A DNA stretch of 64,000 bases. Source: Escherichia phage moskry. The notes beneath the pieces were generated by a model. That model worked only from the letters and a program-made list of their open reading frames with translations. It ran no database searches and was not told where the DNA came from. Below, piece after piece: positions 211 through 19,046 of the stretch. How positions within the stretch are numbered: the stretch's first letter is position 1; each line of letters begins with the position of its first letter. The position numbers and the translations under genes are program-made. The stretch is from the sequence record MN850651.1. One strand, given 5' to 3'.

Positions 211-1383
211 TTATTCATCGAAATCTTCCATTTCGTCAAGGTCGTTTTCTATATCTGCTGCAGACGGAGCATCAGAAGTTTTAACAGGAACTTTAGTTGT
301 TGCTTTGCAATTAATAAGGTCGTTAACAGCGTCATCAACTTCTTTAATAGAAGAGATAGCACCTAGTTTATATTTAGTTTCAATTGCATCTCGGAAAGGT
401 TTGTGTTTAAACAAAGGTCCCCAGAATTCTACACAATCAGTAGCTTTAGCACGCCATGATTTTTCTTCACGAATCATTTCACCTGTTTCTTCGTCAAGGA
501 ATTCACGAGCATACCAACCGGCTTTAGGCTTAACTACAAAACCAATTTCAGTTGCCATTTCTAACAAGCCACTGAATGGGTCAATACCGCCATCAAAATT
601 AACCGTGATTGGGAAAGTAGATTTCTCTTTAACTGTACGAGATTTTTCTGCTTTCAACGTGAAGTCATAACCGGTCAATTCTGTACCTTCTTTAACCTGA
701 CGTTTAGAGATAAAGAATACAGTGTTAGCAGAGTAAAGAATACCTGTACCACCACCCATAATCTCTTTAGGATATAGTCCGCCGATTTCCATTGCTGTAT
801 GGTTGATTGCAACACACGGAATATCTTTAATAGTCAGATAAGGAGTCACAATACGGAACAGAGATTTAAGTGCCTTAGCACGAGACATATCACCTACAAC
901 TTTCTCGTTCAATGCATCTTCGGTTTCTTTCTTAGATGCAGTATTACCAATCGAGTCAATAAAGATAATAACTTTATCACCGCGTTCAATAGCGTCAAGC
1001 TGATTAGTCATATCGACTTTAAGTTGTTCGACAGACTGAATTGGTGTATGAACTACACGGTCTAAATCGACACCCATCGAACGGAAGTAAGATTCTGAAG
1101 CACCGAATTCTGAGTCATAAAACAAACAGATTGCATCTTTATATTTCTTCATATACGCTGCAACCATAGTTAGTCCAAACAATGTTTTAAAATGTTTAGA
1201 AGGTGCAGCAAAAATAGTCAAGCCTGATTGCAATCCTGCATTCAGAGCACCACCTAGTGCAATATTCAACATCGGAATACGAGTAGGGACTTCATCACGA
1301 TTATTAAACAGCTTAGACTTAGTCAAGTCTGCAGTCATTTTAGAAGTAGAAGCTTTAATCAGACGAGATTTTAAATCAGACAT
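211..1383 (-). CDS. uvsX: UvsX RecA-like recombinase
   Basis: 390 aa; near-collinear with recalled T4 UvsX (MSDLKSRLIKASTSK..., KETEDALNEKVV, GWYAREFLDEETGEMIREEKSWRAK). Confidence 0.95.
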   Translation of the reverse strand: MSDLKSRLIKASTSKMTADLTKSKLFNNRDEVPTRIPMLNIALGGALNAGLQSGLTIFAAPSKHFKTLFGLTMVAAYMKKYKDAICLFYDSEFGASESYFRSMGVDLDRVVHTPIQSVEQLKVDMTNQLDAIERGDKVIIFIDSIGNTASKKETEDALNEKVVGDMSRAKALKSLFRIVTPYLTIKDIPCVAINHTAMEIGGLYPKEIMGGGTGILYSANTVFFISKRQVKEGTELTGYDFTLKAEKSRTVKEKSTFPITVNFDGGIDPFSGLLEMATEIGFVVKPKAGWYAREFLDEETGEMIREEKSWRAKATDCVEFWGPLFKHKPFRDAIETKYKLGAISSIKEVDDAVNDLINCKATTKVPVKTSDAPSAADIENDLDEMEDFDE

Positions 1384-1437
1384 TGTATTTTTCCATAGGC
1401 ATCATTATATTTTACTCATGTTTAAAAGATAAGATGA

Positions 1438-1465
1438 TTATATACTAAGGGTTATACAGCATTTA
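1438..1465 (-). promoter_or_regulatory. Candidate T4 middle (MotA-type) promoter upstream of uvsX
   Basis: Minus strand reads aaaTGCTGTAtaacccttagtaTATAAT: MotA-box-like TGCTGTA about 12 nt upstream of a TATAAT -10. Confidence 0.4.
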
Positions 1466-1481
1466 AAAATTTAAATGGCTC

Positions 1482-2030
1482 TTAACGAGCCCATTTAATG
1501 ATTTCTGTAATCAAATAATTACGTTCGCTTGCATTAAATCCTATAACTTTGTTAGCACCATCATGATTAAGTAATTGATACGTTTGGATTTTGTTATGAA
1601 TTGCAAACTCTTCAAAATATGAAATGACTGTATTAAAACCGAATGAAGACAAAGTAATAAGGTCGTCTTCAAAACTTTCAGTCATTTCGTTACGTGTTAA
1701 AATAATTGTGAACACATCATGGTTTTGGCAAAGACGAACATAATCCTGTTCATAAACATCAAGAACCGAGTCCGCATCTTGTCGAATACGTCCATAAACC
1801 CAGTTACTAATATATCCACGGTCTAACAGATAAATCTTAGTAGGGTCTAAATAATTCAACATCGTTTCGAAACAGCCGACTTCATTTCGAGACTTAACAT
1901 CGAAACGCCCATCAACTGTTCGTTTAGGGAAATCAATCTTTACATATCTTTCACTAATTTCCATTATGTCATTAATGAAAGTTGTTTTACCAGCATTATC
2001 CGGCCCGTCTACTAAAATAATTTTAGCCAT
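1482..2030 (-). CDS. P-loop nucleoside/nucleotide kinase-like protein (dNK/dNMP-kinase fold), unknown substrate
   Basis: 182 aa; Walker A VDGPDNAGKTTF; LDRGYISNW resembles the ERS/DRS motif of deoxynucleoside kinases; distinct from gp1. Confidence 0.55.
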   Translation of the reverse strand: MAKIILVDGPDNAGKTTFINDIMEISERYVKIDFPKRTVDGRFDVKSRNEVGCFETMLNYLDPTKIYLLDRGYISNWVYGRIRQDADSVLDVYEQDYVRLCQNHDVFTIILTRNEMTESFEDDLITLSSFGFNTVISYFEEFAIHNKIQTYQLLNHDGANKVIGFNASERNYLITEIIKWAR

Positions 2031-2031
2031 T

Positions 2032-2931
2032 TTATTCCTCGATTACGACATCTTCGTATTTAGGTATATTATACGGTGAAGAAATTAAAGCATTAAAGTA
2101 GATGAACTCACCAAGACCTGGATGGAATACTTCTTCAGGATTTTCGAAATATTGAATCTTCGGACGTCCTTTAAGAATTTGATAGTACTCAGTTTTAGTT
2201 GGATTAAAAATTCGAATCAGCGCTTCTTCAGGATACTTATTTCTGTCGAAGCTATTATTTGGATCGGTTATATAAAGCGGTTGACCTAATTGAATTGCGC
2301 ATTCAACCACTTGTTCAAAACGATAACACGGGTCACTAATTCGAAATGGATGAAAAATACCATCTAGATGAATAGGAGCCAAATCACCTACAAGACGCTG
2401 CATGATGGAAGGACGTATAACTTTCTGAGTTACGATAATCTTATTACCATCTGCACCTGCGTTAACCAGCACTTCTTTTTGACGTTCATTCAACACAGTA
2501 GTTTGAAGTGAACTATTAACTGACAACATATCGGTTTTTAAGAATTCGTCAATATAAAAACGTGGTTTATTAGGGTCTGCCGTGATATTGAAATTGAATT
2601 CTACATCAAAAGCGCCGTCATAACCAGTGATATCTGTTATTAGAAAATCACAATCATAATAAGCAATTAATGAATCAACCACAAATTCATTTTCAGACCA
2701 GAAATATTTACGAGTGTTATACGCGTTATCTTTATACCATAATGGAACAAACTTAAATTCCGGGAAAAGACGTTCACATTCTTTAATATCAGATGCATTA
2801 CGTGGATATGTAATCACATCACCTGGATTAGCACGGTGCAAATGAAGTTGGAAGTTGCCATCCTTAAGGATAGCATACTGTCCAGTTTCATAAGACCGCA
2901 TACTCAAAATAGGTACGCGGAAAATAGCCAT
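2032..2931 (-). CDS. Hypothetical protein in the T4 beta-gt position; candidate DNA sugar transferase
   Basis: 299 aa ORF, stop/start abutting gene 42 homolog; no resemblance to recalled T4 beta-gt. Confidence 0.55.
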   Translation of the reverse strand: MAIFRVPILSMRSYETGQYAILKDGNFQLHLHRANPGDVITYPRNASDIKECERLFPEFKFVPLWYKDNAYNTRKYFWSENEFVVDSLIAYYDCDFLITDITGYDGAFDVEFNFNITADPNKPRFYIDEFLKTDMLSVNSSLQTTVLNERQKEVLVNAGADGNKIIVTQKVIRPSIMQRLVGDLAPIHLDGIFHPFRISDPCYRFEQVVECAIQLGQPLYITDPNNSFDRNKYPEEALIRIFNPTKTEYYQILKGRPKIQYFENPEEVFHPGLGEFIYFNALISSPYNIPKYEDVVIEE

Positions 2932-3647
2932 TAGTCAAGAAATCCTTTAACATAATCAAAATCACGTTCAAACACATGGGCACTTACCATGGTATGAGTA
3001 TAATCACCAACTTCTACACCACATTCGTTAGCGATATAATGAAGTAATTTTCCTTGGAGATAAAAATCCAACTGCATAACAACAGCACAGTTCTGAGAAC
3101 GCATATGACAGTGGGTATAAAGCTTACCATCACGAATATAATAAGTCACTGAGTCAGTACATGGATATTCAAGTGTTTCGTCCGAATCAAGCAAAGCCTG
3201 ATCAGAACTTTCTAGAATTTGGAACACAACTCTTCGAGAGTTAGGTTTCTCTTTAAGTTCTTTTAGAAGAGCCGGTAATTGGGCCGCAATGCGAGGACCG
3301 TAGAAAGTGTTGAAGTTTGCAGGCAAAGCGTCTGATTTAGGTTTAGAAATAAATTTAGCGACATTAGGATATGCCTTAAACGCTTCTTCTGCATCAGTAC
3401 CACCAGAAATCATAAACTTCCAGAAGTCTTCGGCATATTCATAAGAGATGCGGTTAATACGTGGGTCGGTCATTTTGAATGATGATGGATTGTCAACAAC
3501 TACTGTCATGGACCCGATTTCATTACAACGTCCAATACGAGAATTAGTTACGAATTCGGGGTTTTCTAAAATTTCACGATTGACTGCTTTAAATGCGGTT
3601 TGAAAATCTGCGGCTTTGATATATTTCATTGTGTTATGTTTTCCCAT
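2931..3647 (-). CDS. 42: dCMP hydroxymethylase-like enzyme (thymidylate synthase superfamily)
   Basis: 238 aa; catalytic Cys context YPCTDSVTYYIRDGK and HMRSQN parallel T4 gp42 CTNTVQYLIRDKK / NMRSND. Confidence 0.75.
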   Translation of the reverse strand: MGKHNTMKYIKAADFQTAFKAVNREILENPEFVTNSRIGRCNEIGSMTVVVDNPSSFKMTDPRINRISYEYAEDFWKFMISGGTDAEEAFKAYPNVAKFISKPKSDALPANFNTFYGPRIAAQLPALLKELKEKPNSRRVVFQILESSDQALLDSDETLEYPCTDSVTYYIRDGKLYTHCHMRSQNCAVVMQLDFYLQGKLLHYIANECGVEVGDYTHTMVSAHVFERDFDYVKGFLD

Positions 3648-3689
3648 GTTTACCTCAATACAATTTATTATATACTCAATTCGTAAAGC

Positions 3690-3929
3690 TTATTTGAATT
3701 TCTTAGCAATGTTGATATAACGTAAAGCTTCAGAATCTATACTTCCAAGAACACTATGAAGGAATGCATCAGCGTAGTATTCTAGTTGAACAGGTTCTTT
3801 AATCGCTTTAGCCGCTTTAGTTTCAAACAGGCCCATAAGGGCCTTTTTAAGAATTTGTTCGTTGCTATTAATTTTTATGGTCAAAATCTCTTCATTAAGT
3901 TGGTGGTTAAAAGTTTTTCTAGAAATCAT
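3690..3929 (-). CDS. Small hypothetical protein
   Basis: 79 aa ORF co-directional within the modification block. Confidence 0.45.
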   Translation of the reverse strand: MISRKTFNHQLNEEILTIKINSNEQILKKALMGLFETKAAKAIKEPVQLEYYADAFLHSVLGSIDSEALRYINIAKKFK

Positions 3930-5104
3930 TCCGGGTACCTCAAAGCGTCGTCAGAGTTAGTTATATCAATAATAGATATAGAATTTTCTGATAACCCATT
4001 TTTAGATAACTGGCGTTTATAATATCTTTCACAATATGTACACGTCGTCCCGCAGATTTCATTAGCACAATCGAAATCTGGATGTCTGAACCACCTTTTT
4101 TCTAAAAAGCCGTCTAACAAAGAGGTTTCAATATTTACCGTATGTGAAAACTCGGTCTCATTTTCAAGAGTGAAAATGGTCTCTAAAGGCTTCCACAATT
4201 CCAACAAATTACCTTCAAACTTTTCAGAAGCATAAGCTTCAAGAACTTTCAAAATGTAGTCGGTGCTACCTGTACGTCCCGAAACTTTAAATTGAGTGAT
4301 ACCAATATCGTTATAAAGTTTCAAATCTTGGGGACGAACAAAACGAGTTCTCAACCAGTTAAATGGGTCTGTATCACGAGCTTTAATACAGTGCTGCATA
4401 GGATATCCGTTTAAGGATTTAGCATCATCAGCCGTAACATCAGTACTATGGAAAATATAGCAAGAGTCACGATAGCTACAATGTGTTGTATACCCTTTAC
4501 CAGCATTAGAACAGAACTCATTTACAAGAACTTCAAATATTATATTGTTCTTATTGCAAAACTCTGCTGCACGCTTCAGGAAAGAAACTGAACGGTTCTT
4601 ATGAATTCCACAGCAGACCTTTTTGATATTATATTGGTCATGCAAGTATTTGATTTGAGTTACAGCATCGACATGTAGAATTGTTGAAACTTCAATCTCA
4701 ATGTCTTTATTGACTTCACGAACAATTTCCATAACAACAGGGTTAGCGATAGTAATACGCCATACGCCTATTGACCAAAGATACTGAACATAATCCTGAA
4801 TAGCTTTCTTCTTCCACTCAACTAGTTCTCTTTTTGAACCAGGATTTATCGTGTTGAGTGTATAGTTAAAGCAAATACCTAATTCGTTACAACGTTTAAC
4901 GTAGTCTTCTAACATCTTTTTGTCAACGTCAGGAAGCCTAAAATCAGGTCTGGCTGCTACAAAAGCCATTTCTCTTGTAGAGCCGTATACTTCGTTTATC
5001 AAGCTATTAGGATAAGTTTTATTGAGCTCTACGATTTTATCAAGAAGAGCTAAATCAAAATTCGTTCCGATTTTAAAAGTATTCATTTTTTTTTTGCATC
5101 TCAC
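3926..5104 (-). CDS. Hypothetical protein with C-terminal Cys cluster; candidate sugar transferase or accessory enzyme
   Basis: 392 aa; C-terminal CANEICGTTCTYCERYY; no family recognised by eye. Confidence 0.55.
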   Translation of the reverse strand: MRCKKKMNTFKIGTNFDLALLDKIVELNKTYPNSLINEVYGSTREMAFVAARPDFRLPDVDKKMLEDYVKRCNELGICFNYTLNTINPGSKRELVEWKKKAIQDYVQYLWSIGVWRITIANPVVMEIVREVNKDIEIEVSTILHVDAVTQIKYLHDQYNIKKVCCGIHKNRSVSFLKRAAEFCNKNNIIFEVLVNEFCSNAGKGYTTHCSYRDSCYIFHSTDVTADDAKSLNGYPMQHCIKARDTDPFNWLRTRFVRPQDLKLYNDIGITQFKVSGRTGSTDYILKVLEAYASEKFEGNLLELWKPLETIFTLENETEFSHTVNIETSLLDGFLEKRWFRHPDFDCANEICGTTCTYCERYYKRQLSKNGLSENSISIIDITNSDDALRYPE

Positions 5105-5145
5105 GTTAATTGATGCGATGGTTTTTGCAGGTCTTACTTAAATTA

Positions 5146-5547
5146 TTATAGATTAGGTTTATATGATTTAAATGTTTCGAATTCGCCTTTATTCATAAGA
5201 GCTTTGAATTCGTCAGGACGCATAGCTTTGTCGTCGATAATCCAATCATATACTGGTTTATGTGTTAGCAAATTATGGTACTTCAAGCCAATGTTTGCTA
5301 AGTTCTGAATCAGACTTGGGAGAATGTCAATTGCTATACGACCAGGACCTACTGACTTCATACCGCGAGCAGTGTAAAGCGTTATGGTATGCCCTGCATC
5401 ATACAGGGCATTAATGGCAGACACCATTTCGACGTCTGGTTTGAAGTTCACGTAATCACGATTGTTATTCCACTCTGTTATACAATCATCGACATCAAAA
5501 CAAAGATTAAGCATGTTTTCTACACGGTGCATTAGATTCGTTCCCAT
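5146..5547 (-). CDS. HAD-superfamily-like small phosphatase (putative sugar-phosphate phosphatase)
   Basis: 133 aa; motif-I-like FDVDDCIT, motif-II-like ITLYTARG, Lys and IIDDK downstream. Confidence 0.5.
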   Translation of the reverse strand: MGTNLMHRVENMLNLCFDVDDCITEWNNNRDYVNFKPDVEMVSAINALYDAGHTITLYTARGMKSVGPGRIAIDILPSLIQNLANIGLKYHNLLTHKPVYDWIIDDKAMRPDEFKALMNKGEFETFKSYKPNL

Positions 5548-7217
5548 TGATGAGTGATATCGCCACCAATTGGGCGATAAGAAACACCAGTTTCTTTATC
5601 AGTTAGTACCCATTTACCAGGATTTTTTGTAATCAGAGTAGCCGTTACAGGTTCTGCTACGTCATAACTAATAGAGCCGTCTTGAAGTACACGGCCCATG
5701 TTACGTAATTGCTTAGTCAGAAGTTCCATACCTTTATAATATGCAGCTACCGCTTTAAGTGGATTATTCTTGAAATAACCACCTAATGCAATCCAGATAA
5801 TTGCCACTGCCAAATGATGATACTCGTTAAACGAACTCATCTTTCCATATTTGTAAACTAATGGATTGATGTTAATAGTCACATTACAAGTTGTTTCATC
5901 AATAGTAAACTGTCCCCAGGTCGGATTAGCGTTGAATTCATCATAACCTGAAACAGCATAAAGCACTTTAGCTTCATCGTACAATTTTGGCCCGTAAATC
6001 TTGGTTTCCCCAAAATATCCACGAGGGTCGATAAACTTGACTTCGCCGTTATCAGTAATCATAGTATTACTGAAGTTCGGGTCACCATGAATAACAGAGT
6101 ACTGTCCCTGAGAACGGTTATGATAACGAATAAGGTGTTCTAAAGCTTGTTTCAGCATTGGCTTCAGACGCCCAATCTTAGTGTAGTTCACATGGGTGAT
6201 TTTACCAAATGAATCAATCAATGGTTGAATGCTTTCACAACGATCAATAACTTTCGTATAGAATTCTTTAGTGAAATCACGGCGAACAGTTTCAGGACTT
6301 ACAAAATAAGTGTCTGTGCTGAATTTCAGTGCATCTAAAATTGCATCAACAATTTGTGGACGAGCAAGACTTGATTTGGATTTAATATATTCAAATGCCG
6401 GCTTACCTTTAATGCGTTCCATTTCAAAGTTATTTTCATTAACAGAAACTAACTGAGGAACTGAATCTGATTTCACTTTAAGATACCATGAAATCTCATC
6501 TTTCTGAAGAGCTCGACCCTGTTCGGTTAATGCGAATTTAGTTACAGTTTCTTCACCAATTTCAACTGCATTAAAACTACGATTAAGTTCACGAACTTCA
6601 TGAGCTTTTTCAAGTTTAGGCATATCACCTAAATCAATTAGATTCATAAGCTCTGATTTATTGAATGCGCTGCCGTAAAGGAATTCTACGAAATCGCGTC
6701 CTTTGCAGTATTCATGAATTTCCTCATCGGTAGAACCCATATAGAATTCCCAGTCTTTGAACTGATAAATTCCTACAACATTACCACCTGTTGAACCTAC
6801 GTTAGTGATATTTTCACCGTCGAAATTATATCGACATTCGTCACCCTTAACATAGATTGCGTTAACATTCCAAGACCATGAACCAAAATCGGGAATAATA
6901 TCACACCAGTTAACAATTACATTATGGCCGTCTAAATCTTTGTGTAATTTAGCAAGAGCATAAGCAGAACCGTACGCTTCATCAACTGTACGAATAGTCA
7001 CATTGAACCCTTCTTGCTCACAATAAGCTCGAACAGTTTCAGCAAATTTTGAATGAACTACTACAATAATTTCATCTGCGCCAAGGTCAGAATAAATTGT
7101 ATACAAATTGCTCAGAATAGTGTCTTGTTTATAGTTAACAAGCACCTTAGGAATATGATGCGTTATTGGATATAAACGAGTCGCCAGTCCAGCACCAAGA
7201 ATAACAGCTTTTTTCAT
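5532..7217 (-). CDS. Bifunctional sugar-1-phosphate nucleotidyltransferase (N-term) / APH-choline-kinase-fold anomeric sugar kinase (C-term)
   Basis: 561 aa; N-term AVILGAGLATRLYPIT..PK (RmlA/GalU-type); C-term VIHGDPNFSNTM and FIDPRG (kinase catalytic loop). Confidence 0.7.
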   Translation of the reverse strand: MKKAVILGAGLATRLYPITHHIPKVLVNYKQDTILSNLYTIYSDLGADEIIVVVHSKFAETVRAYCEQEGFNVTIRTVDEAYGSAYALAKLHKDLDGHNVIVNWCDIIPDFGSWSWNVNAIYVKGDECRYNFDGENITNVGSTGGNVVGIYQFKDWEFYMGSTDEEIHEYCKGRDFVEFLYGSAFNKSELMNLIDLGDMPKLEKAHEVRELNRSFNAVEIGEETVTKFALTEQGRALQKDEISWYLKVKSDSVPQLVSVNENNFEMERIKGKPAFEYIKSKSSLARPQIVDAILDALKFSTDTYFVSPETVRRDFTKEFYTKVIDRCESIQPLIDSFGKITHVNYTKIGRLKPMLKQALEHLIRYHNRSQGQYSVIHGDPNFSNTMITDNGEVKFIDPRGYFGETKIYGPKLYDEAKVLYAVSGYDEFNANPTWGQFTIDETTCNVTININPLVYKYGKMSSFNEYHHLAVAIIWIALGGYFKNNPLKAVAAYYKGMELLTKQLRNMGRVLQDGSISYDVAEPVTATLITKNPGKWVLTDKETGVSYRPIGGDITHQWERI

Positions 7218-7258
7218 GTTGAAGTCCTCATTGGTAAGTAGGAGTATTGTACACTATT

Positions 7259-7402
7259 CTAGTTAAAGCATTCATACTTTGCTTGTAGTCCAATCATAAT
7301 CCATCCAATTACAAGTGTTGGAATCATTACTGGAGCCGTTAAGCTCCAGTAGATAGTCATGACAAGCATCAATAGTAAAAGTCCTATTGTTATTGCTTTC
7401 AT
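7259..7402 (-). CDS. Small hydrophobic membrane protein (47 aa) in imm-equivalent position
   Basis: ATG overlaps upstream stop (ATGA); MKAITIGLLLLMLVMTIYWSLTAPVMIPTLVIGWIMIGLQAKYECFN; below ORF-track size cutoff. Confidence 0.4.
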   Translation of the reverse strand: MKAITIGLLLLMLVMTIYWSLTAPVMIPTLVIGWIMIGLQAKYECFN

Positions 7403-8034
7403 TGTTCGCCTCGTAACATGGCACCTAGTGCACCGCCTGGATGGAACTTAAGGAAGTCATTAGAGGTAAATCCACGCTCAGACGAAAGGTTGATAGCGAA
7501 CGTATCGATAAGCGCTAACAACAATGTAGTGGACATAGTCGGAGCTAAAGAGTTCTCGTCAACTTCTACCGCGATACCGGTACAGAACGTATAATCAAAA
7601 AGAGCTTCGTATTCTTGTGGAATGTCAGGGTTACAATGCAACAGAATCTGTTTGACGTTCGGGCGAATCATTTTAAGATGCTTAGCCACGCCTATCATTT
7701 CTTCAGTTTTACCAGAACGACTAATATGAATCAACACATCATTAGGCGCAATGAATCCTGCATCACCGTGAGAATAATGCCCAGTGTTCAAGTACATACT
7801 AGGGATACCGAGTGAAGCAAATGTCTCAGAAGCTTTAGTTGCAATATTAGCATTCTTACCAACACCTGTAATAATTACTCGGCTTTCATAATTACTAAGT
7901 CCCGGGCGTCGAAGAGTTTCTAGAATAGCATTATAACGAGCAGGGTTTTGACTAATTACTTTGGCCATAGCGGCCAAAGAAGAAGCTTGTTTTATGATTG
8001 CGTCAATAGCGATAGTAATAGGAGTAGTTTTCAT
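7399..8034 (-). CDS. SIS-domain sugar-phosphate isomerase, KdsD/GutQ-type arabinose-5-phosphate isomerase-like (no CBS domains)
   Basis: 211 aa; GVGKNANIATKASETFASLG..HGDAGFI..ISRSGKTEE..LAPTMSTT..FHPGGALG parallels E. coli KdsD SIS domain. Confidence 0.75.
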   Translation of the reverse strand: MKTTPITIAIDAIIKQASSLAAMAKVISQNPARYNAILETLRRPGLSNYESRVIITGVGKNANIATKASETFASLGIPSMYLNTGHYSHGDAGFIAPNDVLIHISRSGKTEEMIGVAKHLKMIRPNVKQILLHCNPDIPQEYEALFDYTFCTGIAVEVDENSLAPTMSTTLLLALIDTFAINLSSERGFTSNDFLKFHPGGALGAMLRGEQ

Positions 8035-8074
8035 ATTTCTCTCATTTAATTAGTTTACCGTCCATGTCATTATA

Positions 8075-10786
8075 TCAAAAATCGAACATATCGAACAGAG
8101 ATGCTTTCTTCTCGTAATCGAGTTTCGCCGCTGATGTGAATCCTTCAAGTGGTTTAATAAATGTCTTCTCAAGGAGAACCGTGTAGTCCATCCAATGAAG
8201 TACATCATCTTTGATTAAATCAGTGATTTCAGTACCAGAAGGCCATGCGATACATTTATCACCGAATGGGTTTCCTTCACGTAAAGGCAGAACATATACT
8301 TTTTCACCTTCTACAACTTGTGGTGCATCGATATTACCTTTGATAGCCCGGTTATACGTCAGAATTCCACGAATATGGAACGGGCATTTAGGACCAGGGA
8401 ATCCACCTACATCATATTTAGCAATGTTATTCGCAGAAGATACCGACGCGATGCTAATATAATTCAATTGACGGAATTCTTTTTCAAACTCTTTAAAATA
8501 TTCTTGTAATGATTCTTCACCTTCTTGAAGCATACGACGAATACATTCCTTAAGAGCTTTCTGTACTGCTTTAGGGGTTGAAGATTTCTGTGTTTCGAGA
8601 CCCATGATTTTAAGCTTAGGTTCAGCGTATCTAGTTCCTTCCATATCCCACACGTTTAATGCATAACGTTTCTTACCAGTCCAAAATCCACCAATACCTT
8701 TAGAACCAAGCGGAGGTCCAGCGATAGCTTCTCGGTCCATGAACATCAAATGTTGCTTATTATTCATGTATTCGCACATTTCACGGAAACCTCTATCAAT
8801 AGCAGGTTCCATACGTTCACGAGCGAACTTATCTAAGAAGTCTACCCAATGGTTAGTATCGCGGAATTTAGATTCACCAACCTTATCAATAATTTTATCT
8901 GCAGATACGTAAATGGAGTCTGTATCACCATATAGAACGAAAGCTTCACCTTCTGTACCACAAACTTCATTCAGATATTCATTAACTTTACGTTCAATCC
9001 ACTGTAAAGCCATTTGACCAAATGTTGTGATTGCAGTAGCATTACGCAAATCGTAATAACGGAACCAAACGTTGCCAAGTGCACCATAAAGTGAGTTGAT
9101 AAGCAATTTACGGTTAATTTGGGCAGTCATACCTGCAACTTCAGTACGTTGAGCTCTAAACAACATTTCATTAAGAGATTTAGCAGACAACTTTTTAATC
9201 TTTTCTTTAATCTCATCGCTAAAGTCGAAACGATAATCAACATCTAATGGTTCGTCAACAGAAAGATTAGGATTATGCAACGCCTCTTTAATTATTTCAC
9301 CATTACGTTGAGCCGCAAGCATATAACCTTTATGTTCTTTACGTTGATTAAAGACTTTAGTGATTTCAGTTGGAACTACACCATCACGGTCTTTATAATA
9401 CATCATGCCGTTAGGAGAGCAACTGTACACATCAGAAGGACGTTCAGCAACAGCGTTAATATAATCATGCAATGGAGCTACTTTAAACGTTCCTGCTATT
9501 GTTTCTGGGCTAATATTCACTTGGCGAATAATACTTGGATACAGAGATGTAAGGTCGAAACTCATTACATATTTGTATCGATTTGGAATAGGTTCCTTAA
9601 CAAAAGCGCCAGGATAAGGTTGAACTGGATGCGAACGACCTTGTGGAATCACCTTGTTCTGCTCTTTAAGGCTATTGAAAATAATAGCGTCCCAAGTTTT
9701 AATTGGACTGAACACAGATTGAATCTGAATTTTAGCATAATACCCCATGTCCAAACTCAAGTTAATGAACTGGCGTTTAGCATCAATTTGCAATACACGA
9801 TACACGTCGATAATGTTATAAGAAATATATCGTTGGTGATTGCTTTCACGAAGCTTAGAAATAGGGCCGTCATATTTCAGTTTACCAACGTTCAATTCAA
9901 ATTCTGAAATGTAATCCAGAGAATATGACGGTTGGTTCGTGAAAGAGAACTTTTTGTAAAGGTCAATGTAATCAAGAACAGAGATACCGAACAATGTAAT
10001 GATTTCACGAGAACCATACATGTTTTCGATAACTTTAACACGAGTTTTACGATGTGGTGATAAACGTTTCGCAGTAGATTCGCCAAAAATATTCTTGATT
10101 CGGTTATACACATATGGAATATCAAATGACTCAACGTTCCATCCAGTCAAAATGACAGGAGTTTTCTGTTGCCAGAAGTTGAGATATTCCATCAATAATT
10201 CTTTTTCATTATCAAACGGCATATAAACGATTTTGTCGATAATTTCGGATGGAACTTCATCACCACCTTGTTCTTGAAGCTTAGCTGCAATTTCGATAGA
10301 CCATTCTTCTACATTACCATATGGAGAATTCAATAGATCAAATACGTAGAACCTGTCGTCAATTGAGTCATAATGGGTGATGGCATCAATTGGATGTTTT
10401 GCTTGTGACGGCTCAGGGAACCCATCCGGAGATGTTACTTCGATGTCGAAGTTAGCCACACGAATTTTTGTATGGTCGTATTTGATTTCATAGTTATAAG
10501 TGTCAGACAAATACGCCAATTTGAAATCGTCCATGCCAAGTGCTTCAAGTCCGATATCTTCCATGCGTTTAATCCATTGGGAGGCATCACGCATATTAGC
10601 GAACAACTTACGAGTACACGGCTTACCGTAGATATCGAAATATTTCGTAGCCTGACTTTCTGGACAATGAGCAAACAGTGATGGTTTATATTCTACTTCA
10701 CGAGTACGTTCACGGCCATTAGAATCGATGTAACGTTCAAAAATTGAATCACCAATCTGTTCAACCGTTAAGTAAAATTCTTTCAT
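8075..10786 (-). CDS. 43: DNA polymerase (family B), gp43
   Basis: 903 aa; MKEFYLTVEQIGDSIFERYIDSNGRER..., exonuclease and polymerase motifs (YGDTDS); N-terminus matches recalled RB69 gp43. Confidence 0.97.
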   Translation of the reverse strand: MKEFYLTVEQIGDSIFERYIDSNGRERTREVEYKPSLFAHCPESQATKYFDIYGKPCTRKLFANMRDASQWIKRMEDIGLEALGMDDFKLAYLSDTYNYEIKYDHTKIRVANFDIEVTSPDGFPEPSQAKHPIDAITHYDSIDDRFYVFDLLNSPYGNVEEWSIEIAAKLQEQGGDEVPSEIIDKIVYMPFDNEKELLMEYLNFWQQKTPVILTGWNVESFDIPYVYNRIKNIFGESTAKRLSPHRKTRVKVIENMYGSREIITLFGISVLDYIDLYKKFSFTNQPSYSLDYISEFELNVGKLKYDGPISKLRESNHQRYISYNIIDVYRVLQIDAKRQFINLSLDMGYYAKIQIQSVFSPIKTWDAIIFNSLKEQNKVIPQGRSHPVQPYPGAFVKEPIPNRYKYVMSFDLTSLYPSIIRQVNISPETIAGTFKVAPLHDYINAVAERPSDVYSCSPNGMMYYKDRDGVVPTEITKVFNQRKEHKGYMLAAQRNGEIIKEALHNPNLSVDEPLDVDYRFDFSDEIKEKIKKLSAKSLNEMLFRAQRTEVAGMTAQINRKLLINSLYGALGNVWFRYYDLRNATAITTFGQMALQWIERKVNEYLNEVCGTEGEAFVLYGDTDSIYVSADKIIDKVGESKFRDTNHWVDFLDKFARERMEPAIDRGFREMCEYMNNKQHLMFMDREAIAGPPLGSKGIGGFWTGKKRYALNVWDMEGTRYAEPKLKIMGLETQKSSTPKAVQKALKECIRRMLQEGEESLQEYFKEFEKEFRQLNYISIASVSSANNIAKYDVGGFPGPKCPFHIRGILTYNRAIKGNIDAPQVVEGEKVYVLPLREGNPFGDKCIAWPSGTEITDLIKDDVLHWMDYTVLLEKTFIKPLEGFTSAAKLDYEKKASLFDMFDF

Positions 10787-16182: not shown

Positions 16183-16411
16183 TACACGCTTCAGCCATTT
16201 TAAGAATAGAACTGGGAGTATCGTTGTCCATTATATTAAAGCTAAATTCAATAGCCCAGTCGGTGCAGACATGAACTGCTTTAACTTCATTGCCTTCAAC
16301 GCGTAATGGCTCAATCCAATACTTGATAGTGTTCTCGAATCCATCATCATCTTTAACGTCTATTTCAACTTCAAGCCCGAGCCCAGCATTGTTAAATTCA
16401 TCTAAAGTCAT
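16154..16411 (-). CDS. Hypothetical protein
   Basis: 85 aa acidic ORF. Confidence 0.5.
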   Translation of the reverse strand: MTLDEFNNAGLGLEVEIDVKDDDGFENTIKYWIEPLRVEGNEVKAVHVCTDWAIEFSFNIMDNDTPSSILKMAEACIEDAYNDED

Positions 16412-17427
16412 TGTGTTGCCTCAATATAAAGTTCGTTGGAATATTTGACCAGCGCTTCTCTGTCTTCGTCTGAGATATCTGGAATCGCGTCAATATATTC
16501 TTTAATGATATCTTGAAGTGATTTAATCTCGATTTCCTGGTCGTCATCAGATTCAACACTGTTATCAACTTTAGAAACCATACGAAGAGAGTGAACTACT
16601 TTTTCAAGTTCAGATTCAAACTTAGTCAAATCTGAATCAATTTCTGATACTATAACACGTACGGCTAGATTAGTATAATCAGAATAATTGATTTTGCCTT
16701 TAAACGGATAAGTGATTCGTCGATGCCATGTTGTTTCATTAGGAATAAATTCCATACGTTCAACATCAGTGTCAAATACCCAGAATCCTCGAGGGTCGTT
16801 CTCATCACCTGCAGTAAGGGTCCATGGTGTCCCAATATATTTGACGTTAGCAGCTTCAGAGATTGTGTGGAAGTGGCCGGACCAGACTTGTTTATAGGTC
16901 TTTAAGAAATCAGGTTCAAGCCCATGAGACTTCATTCCTTTATAGAAATAAAAGCCGTTCAGTTCCCAGTGACCAACACAATACGCAGCAGAAGAAGTCT
17001 TGATGTGCTCTAAGATTTCACCTGTATTTTCTTCACACATCCATGGAACGATATCAATCAGACATCCGTCAAAATCTACAGTAGTTGGATGTTCGTAAAT
17101 AGTAAAGTTTTCAAATTGAGTTAACAATTCAGAAACAGTGTTAGGTGTTATTGTATTTTTAAACGCCATGTCATGGTTTCCTATCGTGACATGAACGTGA
17201 ATGCCTGCTTTAGAAATCATATCAACGATTTCACGATTGAATTCCATTGTACGATGTGTTATTGCTTTACGGACGTCAAACCAATCACCGTACTGAATCC
17301 AAGTTTTAATCCCGTGTTTCTTAGAGTATTCAATTGCTTGACGAATACCGTCACGTTGAATATCTTGGACCCATGGGTCGTCTTGTTTGACTCCGATATG
17401 GAAGTCGCCTAAGTGCAAAATTTTCAT
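16408..17427 (-). CDS. 47: Recombination nuclease subunit gp47 (Mre11/SbcD-like)
   Basis: 339 aa; MKILHLGDFHIG, GNHD, GHWELNGF phosphoesterase motifs. Confidence 0.95.
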   Translation of the reverse strand: MKILHLGDFHIGVKQDDPWVQDIQRDGIRQAIEYSKKHGIKTWIQYGDWFDVRKAITHRTMEFNREIVDMISKAGIHVHVTIGNHDMAFKNTITPNTVSELLTQFENFTIYEHPTTVDFDGCLIDIVPWMCEENTGEILEHIKTSSAAYCVGHWELNGFYFYKGMKSHGLEPDFLKTYKQVWSGHFHTISEAANVKYIGTPWTLTAGDENDPRGFWVFDTDVERMEFIPNETTWHRRITYPFKGKINYSDYTNLAVRVIVSEIDSDLTKFESELEKVVHSLRMVSKVDNSVESDDDQEIEIKSLQDIIKEYIDAIPDISDEDREALVKYSNELYIEATQ

Positions 17428-18217: not shown

Positions 18218-18427
18218 TTATCTCATTAAATTAAAATAAAAACGTCCATCCTCTTCAATACAGAACTCATACTCAACCGGAGTCCCATTTATCGAAAATG
18301 ACACGTCATGTGGGTTCAAAGGGTCGATGTCAAAATTAATTTTAAATTCACGACCCAACAATTTTACCAAATAAGGGATTGCTTCGTCAAAAGGTTCTTC
18401 TAAGTAGTTAGAGATGTCAATTGTCAT
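18218..18427 (-). CDS. Hypothetical protein
   Basis: ORF track 18218..18511; internal ATG at 18427 avoids overlap with gene 55. Confidence 0.45.
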
Positions 18428-18974
18428 CCTCATATAAAAAATCCAAACTAGGCGAATCGCTAACAACTTCCTTCTTTTCAGCCCCAGGAGCTTTATAAGC
18501 GGATTCTTCATAATGCGTCATTTTATCGTAGATGTCTTGAATAAACGTTTCATCTACCAACGCTACCATATCATCGTCATGACTGTCGTAGACATTATGA
18601 ACGAAGTAACTATATTTCTTTGCAACTTCCTTACGTTCTTTTTTGATACGTTGGACAAAAGCATTAAAACAAGCTCGAGTTATGTATGCATGTGGGTTAT
18701 TGTACTTAGTTTCGTCGAAATTATGAAGTCCCTTAATAGAGGCTTCAATCCCATCTGCAATCATCTCCTGCTTCCAAGACTGGGTATATCCTGAAAAGTT
18801 GAAACGTTTGGACAGGCCTTCGGCGATAAGCATAATTGCTAAACCGATGGTATCATTCTGACGAATAATTTTGTTTGGGTCTTTATTATTTAAGAGCTCC
18901 TTTTTCCACTCGATTATAGCGGCGAGAAGCTCTTTATTATTCACATAGTTATTTTTAGGTTTTTGTTCAGTCAT
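18417..18974 (-). CDS. 55: Late-transcription sigma factor gp55
   Basis: 185 aa from ATG 18974 (SD AAGAGG); [20 protein letters not shown]...[27 protein letters not shown] matches T4 gp55. Confidence 0.93.
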
Positions 18975-19046
18975 AAGTACCTCTTGGCTCAATTCATAGG
19001 TCTATTATATCATAATATTTAGAGACCTATCTTAAAGCACGAGATA

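Follow-up and report, generated by a model that had tools for sequence, protein, structure and literature searches.

The minus-strand block at positions 1482–8034 of a sequence from Escherichia phage moskry is the arabinosyl-5-hydroxycytosine DNA hypermodification cluster of RB69-like phages, which has already been published. The window analysed here is a stretch of 64,000 nucleotides (sequence record MN850651.1) and belongs to a Mosigvirus (Straboviridae) that resembles RB69. Our explanation of the cluster is that it makes arabinosylated 5-hydroxycytosine (5hoC), with a glycosyltransferase of 299 amino acids (aa), here called GT1, as the first transferase and a 392-aa protein of the U32 family as an anaerobic hydroxylase, and as a whole we consider it probable. 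For the U32 protein itself we lean, with rather more than even confidence, towards a prephenate-dependent, O2-independent Fe-S hydroxylase making 5-hydroxy-(deoxy)cytosine, as the anaerobic twin of an O2-dependent enzyme of the thymidylate synthase (TS) type in the same cluster.

The cluster lies within a co-directional minus-strand block bracketed by uvsX (211–1383) and DNA polymerase gene 43 (8075–10786). Over 6.8 kb around it the nucleotide identity to ECO26.1 3-1, PhAPEC2, RB69 and JS09 is 97.6–98.9% (97.8% to RB69, with unchanged gene order), and the block is collinear with RB69p045–p055. The published counterparts are RB69 gp45–gp55, DLP3 gp76–83 and the Afh genes of HY126. The order of open reading frames (ORFs) in the original prediction (uvsX, a 182-aa P-loop protein, then ORFs of 299, 238, 79 and 392 aa) was confirmed, all on the minus strand. 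The features are:

211–1383, minus strand: uvsX
1477–1491, minus strand: terminator-like hairpin with T-rich tail from a consensus scan, at the kinase stop codon and thus at the cluster's downstream end before uvsX
1482–2030, minus strand: 182-aa thymidylate-kinase-like P-loop nucleotide kinase (= RB69p045, gp45)
2032–2931, minus strand: 299-aa protein with a compact GT-B glycosyltransferase fold, GT1 (= RB69 gp46:47)
2931–3647, minus strand: 238-aa TS-superfamily protein, predicted 5-hydroxy-dCMP synthase (= RB69 gp48, HY126 enzyme)
3690–3929, minus strand: 79-aa ORF (= RB69p049; PHROG 8601, function unknown, E 1e-49)
3926–5104, minus strand: U32-family TIM-barrel protein (= RB69 gp50), 392 aa from GTG 5104 or, likelier, 386 aa from ATG 5086
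5146–5547, minus strand: 133-aa HAD-type phosphatase (= RB69 gp51, AfhF analogue; TIGR01689, E 4e-13; PHROG 1238)
5532–7217, minus strand: 561-aa bifunctional protein, nucleotidyltransferase (N-terminal) and APH-type kinase (C-terminal) (= RB69 gp52:53, AfhE analogue; PF00483, E 8.5e-10; PF12804; weak kinase-family matches)
7399–8034, minus strand: 211-aa SIS-domain arabinose-5-phosphate isomerase (= RB69 gp55; PF01380, E 1.7e-10; RefSeq product name in RB69)

The 238-aa ORF had been predicted to be gene 42, with 5-hydroxymethylcytosine (hmC) as the base to be glycosylated. The protein matches PF00303 (E 2.3e-15) and, over its full length, PDB entries 9iqc/9ir2/9iqu (E = 1e-160); T4 gp42 is not within its 60 best PDB sequence matches, which do include MilA and ThyA. 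Aligned to E. coli ThyA it carries C146, N169 and D177, and thus has Asn at the position where Asp is expected of a gp42-type folate enzyme. N169 is the residue diagnostic of synthases of 5-hydroxydeoxycytidine monophosphate (5-hydroxy-dCMP; PMC13326640), and the combination C/N/D at ThyA positions 146/169/177 recurs in 55 of 57 GT1-linked TS homologues. RB69 gp48 makes 5-hydroxy-dC, takes up 18O from O2 and binds flavin (Lee et al. 2026, PMC13326640). Because of the N169/D177 signature and the near-identity to 9iqc, we take the 238-aa protein to be the 5-hydroxy-dCMP synthase that Lee et al. 2026 described; judged by its sequence it is a flavin- and O2-dependent enzyme, homologous to gene 42 at superfamily level only. 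With this assignment the hmC premise is wrong and the acceptor is 5-hydroxycytosine. RB69 DNA contains mono- and di-arabinosyl-5-hydroxycytosine, correcting the arabinosyl-hmC first reported by Thomas et al. 2018.

The original prediction placed the DNA sugar transferase in either the 299-aa or the 392-aa protein. It stands for the former, through the fold and a published assignment, and falls for the latter, which is a U32 TIM barrel. The remark that the 299-aa protein does not resemble beta-gt is correct as far as sequence goes: searches of Pfam, NCBIfam and PDB sequences gave no match, no curated glycosyltransferase family model (e.g. Pfam Glycos_transf_1) recognises it, and its PHROG (3891) is annotated 'unknown function'. 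PDB sequence-profile searches with the 299-aa and 392-aa families returned nothing meaningful, and only the fold comparison was informative. An AlphaFold2 model of the 299-aa protein built from 55 homologues (pLDDT 95.1) has a GT-B fold, with two Rossmann-like alpha/beta domains and a cleft between them, and not a nucleotidyltransferase fold. R197, K246 and H270-P-G272 are invariant in the 55 homologues, 47 of which have E and 8 D at position 275. These are candidates for the residues of the C-terminal domain that bind the nucleoside diphosphate (NDP), which in GT-B enzymes include a basic residue for the phosphate and an acidic one for the ribose. RB69 gp46:47 is listed as predicted 'arabinosyltransferase 1' (PMC13326640 Table 1). 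From the modelled fold, the 299-aa protein is most likely this predicted alpha-arabinosyltransferase 1, which would place the first D-arabinofuranose (Araf) onto the 5-hydroxyl of cytosine.

No other protein in the window belongs to the family of the 299-aa protein. The original prediction had also named the case in which both candidates fold as other families and the transferase is found elsewhere; GT1 is a GT-B protein, and a transferase elsewhere does exist, as the homologue of RB69p003. This second transferase sits between rIIA and gene 39, outside the window, and was found in the window by neither tblastn nor phmmer. Between genes 47 (16408–17427) and 55 (a gene 55-sized ORF at 18417–18992) only ORFs of 107 and 97 aa were found and none of alpha-gt size, as had been noted before. 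The transferase question is already answered in print, and what the window adds is intact gene copies: the 299-aa and 561-aa ORFs are each single and intact (2032–2931 and 5532–7217), and in the RB69 reference (L001 2233–3133 and 5730–7416) both are split, into 046c/047c and 052c/053c. The authors put these splits down to sequencing errors (PMC13326640), and the intact ORFs support their view.

The 392-aa protein matches PF01136 (Peptidase_U32) with 42.2 bits against a cut-off of 22.4, over residues 100–292, and its TIM-barrel fold is like that of Mk0906 (5d88), the only solved U32 structure. A role as sugar transferase was rejected on these two grounds. The length of 392 aa assumes the GTG at 5104, which gives the longest ORF; in homologues the start is the in-frame ATG at 5086 (MNTFKIG), for a length of about 386 aa. 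The C-terminal Cys cluster in the original prediction is real: C346-x4-C351-x3-C355-x2-C358 is invariant in 54 homologues, together with six more Cys, and these ten residues could accommodate two Fe-S clusters. MAFFT aligns C209/C215 of the phage protein with C169/C176 of UbiU and RlhA, and GYPMQHC239 with GYPTLC232 of UbiU, so that C209, C215 and C239 correspond to three of the four proven 4Fe-4S ligands of UbiU; the fourth would be C198 or another invariant Cys, and the other Fe-S ligands can be assigned only tentatively. A radical-SAM reading of C351-x3-C355-x2-C358 found no support: such enzymes have a Radical_SAM domain, a partial TIM barrel whose CX3CX2C motif is N-terminal, and this was not found here. 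Among the four E. coli U32 members the closest is RlhA (E = 1.1e-5 over 205 columns; hhalign probability 82%). Across phage genera the U32 protein is 81–87% identical and the transferase 45–74%. T4-like U32 proteins also share a low-confidence C-terminal tail ending in DALRYPE (DALRYSE in Thanatos; window 3926–3995, residues ~370–392) that is missing from non-T4 U32 homologues and may be a docking motif.

The characterised U32 proteins (UbiU/UbiV, TrhP and RlhA) are Fe-S enzymes for which a role in hydroxylation without O2 has been proposed, with prephenate donating the oxygen (PMC10990095, PMC12783734). RlhA is the 5-hydroxycytidine synthase of 23S rRNA (ho5C2501), TrhP forms ho5U34 of tRNA, and UbiU/UbiV act in anaerobic ubiquinone hydroxylation. 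They pair with O2-dependent counterparts, TrhP with TrhO and UbiU/UbiV with UbiI/H/F (PMC10990095, PMC12783734).

IMG/VR supplied 47 loci centred on U32 and 58 centred on GT1; together with 13 loci from species-representative genomes and additional metagenome contigs, we scanned them with profiles for neighbouring genes. Wherever the flanks of a GT1 locus were usable (56 loci), a hydroxylase candidate was present within 10 kb of GT1, adjacent as a rule. Of these loci, 51 had a TS homologue of the 5-hydroxy-dCMP synthase type (50 with N169, one with S169) and 20 had U32; 15 loci, all T4-like, had both and none had neither. All five GT1 loci without such a TS carry U32, one of them having only a canonical D169/N177 ThyA. 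Outside the T4-like phages U32 and N169 TS were mutually exclusive in GT1 loci (5, 0, 0, 22; Fisher p = 1.2e-5). The S169 protein (L113 3615–4304) has kept D177 and may form a different product.

In TS-only loci outside the T4-like phages a Flavodoxin_2-type gene, likely a flavin reductase, usually stands beside the TS gene (L012 1978–2523, L013 2605–3123, L015 8715–9275; also L091–L106, L109 and L115), which fits the flavin dependence of the TS homologue. This gene was never found in U32-only loci and in none of the T4-like phages. Seven loci, such as L059, have a minimal trio of a thymidylate-kinase-like gene, GT1 and U32 beside DNA polymerase III alpha, with no sugar-activation genes. The idea that U32-only clusters lack a nucleotide kinase, so that U32 would act on DNA, was dropped, as thymidylate-kinase-like genes occur in 22 of 36 such loci, the trios included; the kinase kept in U32-only operons suggests action at the nucleotide level, with action on DNA also possible.

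Dhakavirus IME08 and Acinetobacter phage AM101 have genes for the isomerase, nucleotidyltransferase/kinase, phosphatase, TS homologue, GT1 and kinase, and no U32. Among phage records, GT1 was found in 342 (57 of them Acinetobacter) and U32 in 221, with Acinetobacter not among the U32 genera listed. Acinetobacter phage DLP3 makes tri-arabinosyl-5hoC, and its published cluster lists no U32 (PMC13326640 Table 1). Because U32-less clusters (IME08, AM101, DLP3) exist and DLP3 arabinosylates its DNA, U32 appears dispensable for sugar activation and transfer.

The U32 subfamily was also found in 13 genome bins, among them Erysipelotrichales, Oscillospiraceae, Gastranaerophilaceae, Romboutsia, Lachnospiraceae, a Phocaeicola faecalis isolate, Clostridia, Angelakisella and Eubacteriaceae. 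From their taxon names we take about 11 of the 13 to be gut or anaerobic lineages. Displacement of the N169 TS and the occurrence in such bins suggest that the U32 protein is O2-independent. The phage-type U32 gene of the cultured Phocaeicola faecalis isolate (FXJYN30E22, scaffold 17; L132 6049–7125; 44% identity) has no profiled partner within 10 kb, which could mean that it belongs to a prophage or that the enzyme serves another purpose there. In large phage contigs, RimK-like ATP-grasp genes lie beside U32 clusters (L052 5911–8719, L044 1479–3116), one of them fused to NlpC/P60; their products may attach amino acids to the base modification or to its sugar.

The neighbours of U32 also include enzymes of prephenate supply. 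Prephenate, the oxygen donor of U32 enzymes (PMC10990095, PMC12783734), is the product of chorismate mutase. In 13 of 15 T4-like U32 loci a small ORF for a type II chorismate mutase (PF01817, scoring above the gathering cut-off) is situated between U32 and the TS homologue, and in Thanatos-2 this ORF overlaps the U32 stop codon (L137 7134–7391). Chorismate mutase occurs in 0 of 43 U32-less loci (Fisher p = 2.5e-8, and p = 1.5e-6 within T4-like phages, with relatedness ignored in both values). Over all 64 U32 loci, chorismate mutase, or a fusion of it with 3-deoxy-D-arabino-heptulosonate 7-phosphate (DAHP) synthase, stands beside U32 in 28, and DAHP synthase alone in 2 more. In relatives the chorismate mutase ORF is labelled 'hypothetical protein', as in Yersinia phage TG1 (L136 4721–5195).

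In 7 of 36 non-T4 phage loci a gene flanking U32 encodes DAHP synthase, the first enzyme of the shikimate pathway, by itself or as a fusion with chorismate mutase; in others a standalone chorismate mutase flanks U32. Loci with DAHP synthase directly beside U32, in four of which it is fused to chorismate mutase, are:

L041, 8399–9430
L043, 3–968
L044, 7302–8357
L046, 8323–9384
L003, 9145–9891
L030, 9384–10127

We rejected the possibility that the PF00793 neighbour of U32 is a 3-deoxy-D-manno-octulosonate 8-phosphate (KDO-8-P) synthase, a user of arabinose-5-phosphate, since NCBIfam favours DAHP synthase by 40–50 orders of magnitude. The gene order in L044 is GT1, SIS isomerase, nucleotidyltransferase/kinase, thymidylate-kinase-like gene, DAHP synthase fused to chorismate mutase, HAD phosphatase and U32, with no TS homologue. 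By its predicted gene products, this operon has the gene set of the Mosigvirus cluster, except that an enzyme of prephenate supply replaces the TS homologue. The genomic linkage to chorismate mutase and DAHP synthase points to prephenate dependence of U32.

Taken together, these findings suggest the following pathway. The isomerase (7399–8034) would yield arabinose-5-phosphate, which the bifunctional enzyme (5532–7217) and the phosphatase (5146–5547) would convert to UDP-arabinofuranose (UDP-Araf). The 238-aa enzyme would convert dCMP to 5-hydroxy-dCMP using flavin and O2, and the 182-aa protein would serve as the cluster's dedicated nucleotide kinase. The first arabinose would be added by the 299-aa GT-B enzyme and the second by the rIIA-proximal GT-B enzyme. 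In the absence of O2, the U32 enzyme would supply the same 5-hydroxylated base with oxygen from host prephenate; having no chorismate mutase of its own, the phage would rely on that of the host. Sugar activation and O2-dependent hydroxylation are based on published experiments with near-identical proteins, and we infer the GT1 and U32 steps.

Several observations weigh against this explanation. The roles of the 299-aa and 392-aa proteins are predictions from sequence, fold and gene neighbourhood, and the sampled loci are phylogenetically related, so that the Fisher p-values overstate their independence. The missing chorismate mutase counts here too: in the window its slot (3647–3929) holds only the unrelated 79-aa ORF, and L017 is also without it. 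E. coli Dhakaviruses do without U32. The Cys spacing of the phage protein is CX5C and not the canonical U32 CX6CX15CX3/4C (CX6CX16CX38C in UbiU), and phage-profile matches to UbiU, TrhP and UbiV were weak and not significant. U32 hydroxylases have never been reconstituted in vitro (PMC10990095). The remaining objections concern published or deposited functions for GT1 and U32, and each leads to a different reading of the cluster.

GT1 might be an NDP-pentose pyrophosphorylase (a sugar-1-phosphate nucleotidylyltransferase) and not a DNA or nucleotide glycosyltransferase. Its 299-aa orthologue in Thanatos, TH1_063, was reported as a UDP-xylose pyrophosphorylase in vitro (PMC12838424), and the orthology of TH2_066/TH1_063 is clear (profile E 1e-117). 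Moreover, single purified glycosyltransferases of DLP3 gave no arabinosylation of 5hoC-DNA, and the first sugar might go on the mononucleotide (PMC13326640). We nevertheless judge a pyrophosphorylase quite improbable. The pyrophosphorylase report, from a 2025 paper, conflicts with the GT-B fold; the PF00483 domain of the 561-aa protein is already a dedicated nucleotidyltransferase; mono-arabinosylated Thanatos has the 299-aa orthologue as its only candidate with a glycosyltransferase fold; and GT1 always occurs with a base hydroxylase, including the trios that lack sugar-activation genes. The GenBank label of the Thanatos-2 orthologue TH2_066 (L137 4534–5436) is 'putative RNA polymerase binding protein'.

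The U32 protein, in turn, has been placed in the sugar branch. Gp50 is listed as a 'sugar or heterocycle reductase', without discussion of its function (PMC13326640 Table 1), the GenBank record of Bas47 names it a UDP-arabinose biosynthesis enzyme, and in many loci U32 adjoins sugar-activation genes. This placement is unlikely, as UDP-Araf is made with AfhE/AfhF analogues and the isomerase step is predicted, leaving no step for U32; DLP3 arabinosylates without U32, and the trios have U32 without sugar genes. In addition, the U32 literature that we consulted describes no U32 reductase, and the linkage to chorismate mutase points to prephenate chemistry. RlhA as the best E. coli match and the family name 'peptidase/collagenase' would also allow U32 to be an RNA hydroxylase (a phage version of RlhA or TrhP whose targets would be rRNA or tRNA of the host or the phage) or a true peptidase, present in the cluster by chance. 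This is very unlikely: U32 is found steadily within nucleotide- and DNA-modification operons of T4-like and of Pol III alpha-encoding phages, it excludes the TS-type hydroxylase outside T4-like phages, and the C-terminal domains present in the 653-aa RlhA are missing from it. Finally, we give next to no credence to a gene 42 enzyme making hmC for glycosylation by the 299-aa protein or, in particular, the Cys-rich 392-aa protein. The positions analogous to T4 beta-gt and imm, the adjoining pentose pathway and the arabinosyl-hmC of Thomas et al. 2018 speak for it, but the fold of the 392-aa protein rules out a transferase, and published NMR and mass spectrometry rule out hmC. A base hydroxylase working with prephenate is the reading of U32 that we prefer.

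The puzzle that this reading addresses is that of a gut phage making a base whose sole known synthase needs molecular oxygen. If it is true, only the O2-dependent enzyme would be found in phages of strict aerobes and only U32 in those of strict anaerobes, in many cases together with a chorismate mutase or DAHP synthase encoded by the phage, whereas phages of facultative anaerobes would have both. This would parallel the host pairs UbiI/H/F and UbiU/V, and TrhO and TrhP. DNA modification would then be possible while a facultatively anaerobic host grows without oxygen, and the anoxic retention of this anti-restriction modification could be predicted from sequence for therapeutic and model phages. 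The phage protein would also be the first U32 enzyme acting on DNA or DNA precursors, extending the family from RNA and quinones to DNA metabolism and providing U32 enzymology with a substrate that is soluble and easy to assay. Both the cluster and the transferase assignment are known, and it is the link between U32 and prephenate that we newly infer. Full-text searches found no paper tying U32, chorismate mutase or prephenate to these phages, and neither chorismate nor prephenate is named in PMC13326640; priority may lie with He et al. 2026 or Mahler et al. 2025, which the searches did not cover.

As for the other genes of the cluster, the 182-aa protein matches PHROG 761 'thymidylate kinase' (E 5.8e-45), with weak Pfam and NCBIfam P-loop matches, and its homologue is listed as 'nucleotide kinase' (PMC13326640 Table 1). 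This kinase type occurs in all full-length T4-like clusters and in the U32-only trios (e.g. L059), and its substrate may be 5-hydroxy-dCMP or the arabinosylated form. The phosphatase converts Araf-1,5-bisphosphate to Araf-1-phosphate, and enzymes of the bifunctional 561-aa type make UDP-Araf (PMC13326640); this synthesis has been reconstituted with AfhE and AfhF analogues, the isomerase step being predicted (He et al. 2026 as summarised in PMC13326640).

The start of the 79-aa ORF overlaps the U32 stop by 4 nt. Its product contains no cysteine and has no Pfam match even at E <= 1, and homologues were found by single-sequence phmmer in 5 of 15 T4-like U32 loci, being limited to some lineages. 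We rejected it as a chorismate mutase, since it has no CM_2 match and a separate chorismate mutase is present in relatives (the two ORFs coexist in L018, L023, L026 and L031), and, being cysteine-free, as an Fe-S partner of U32.

A 50-aa GTG ORF at 7272–7424, between the nucleotidyltransferase and isomerase genes, overlaps the 5' end of the isomerase gene and matches the position of RB69 ORF054c (noted as 'similar to T4 42-imm intercistronic region') and is unlikely to be a gene. A scan of 1300–8200 for sigma-70 promoters and terminators found no enrichment compared with shuffled sequences (5 terminator-like sites observed, 3.3 expected). Because terminator-like sites did not exceed the shuffle level, the hairpin at 1477–1491 is a positional note only.

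Compared with T4, the 238-aa protein shares with gp42 the thymidylate-synthase fold, the catalytic Cys and the Asp at ThyA position 177 that gives dCMP specificity. It differs in Asn169 and, as predicted, in its cofactor, which would be flavin with O2 and not methylene-tetrahydrofolate, and in its product, 5-hydroxy-dCMP. GT1 has no detectable sequence similarity to the alpha- and beta-glucosyltransferases of T4 and is about 100 residues shorter than alpha-gt. In contrast to the hydroxymethyl group used by the T4 enzymes, its acceptor would be a phenol-like 5-OH and its donor UDP-arabinofuranose, with the first transfer on DNA or at the mononucleotide level.

With the E. coli U32 hydroxylases the phage protein shares PF01136, the TIM barrel and conserved cysteines of putative Fe-S type, and two of the three reaction types known for these enzymes are hydroxylations of pyrimidine C5. 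As for TrhP and UbiU/UbiV, an O2-dependent counterpart exists, here gp48, encoded two genes from U32. However, the relation is distant and the phage protein has six extra invariant Cys, including the C-terminal CX4CX3CX2C, which is absent from the E. coli enzymes; UbiU–UbiV is a heterodimer, whereas the phage has a single polypeptide whose presumed substrate is a deoxynucleotide or DNA. A precedent is the CmoA/CmoX carboxymethylcytosine pathway of phages (PMC12783734), in which bacterial tRNA-modification chemistry and prephenate are borrowed for the hypermodification of DNA cytosine. That pathway uses a Cx-SAM synthase and a methyltransferase homologue, whereas L044, the sole fully annotated U32 operon, contains no CmoA-like gene.

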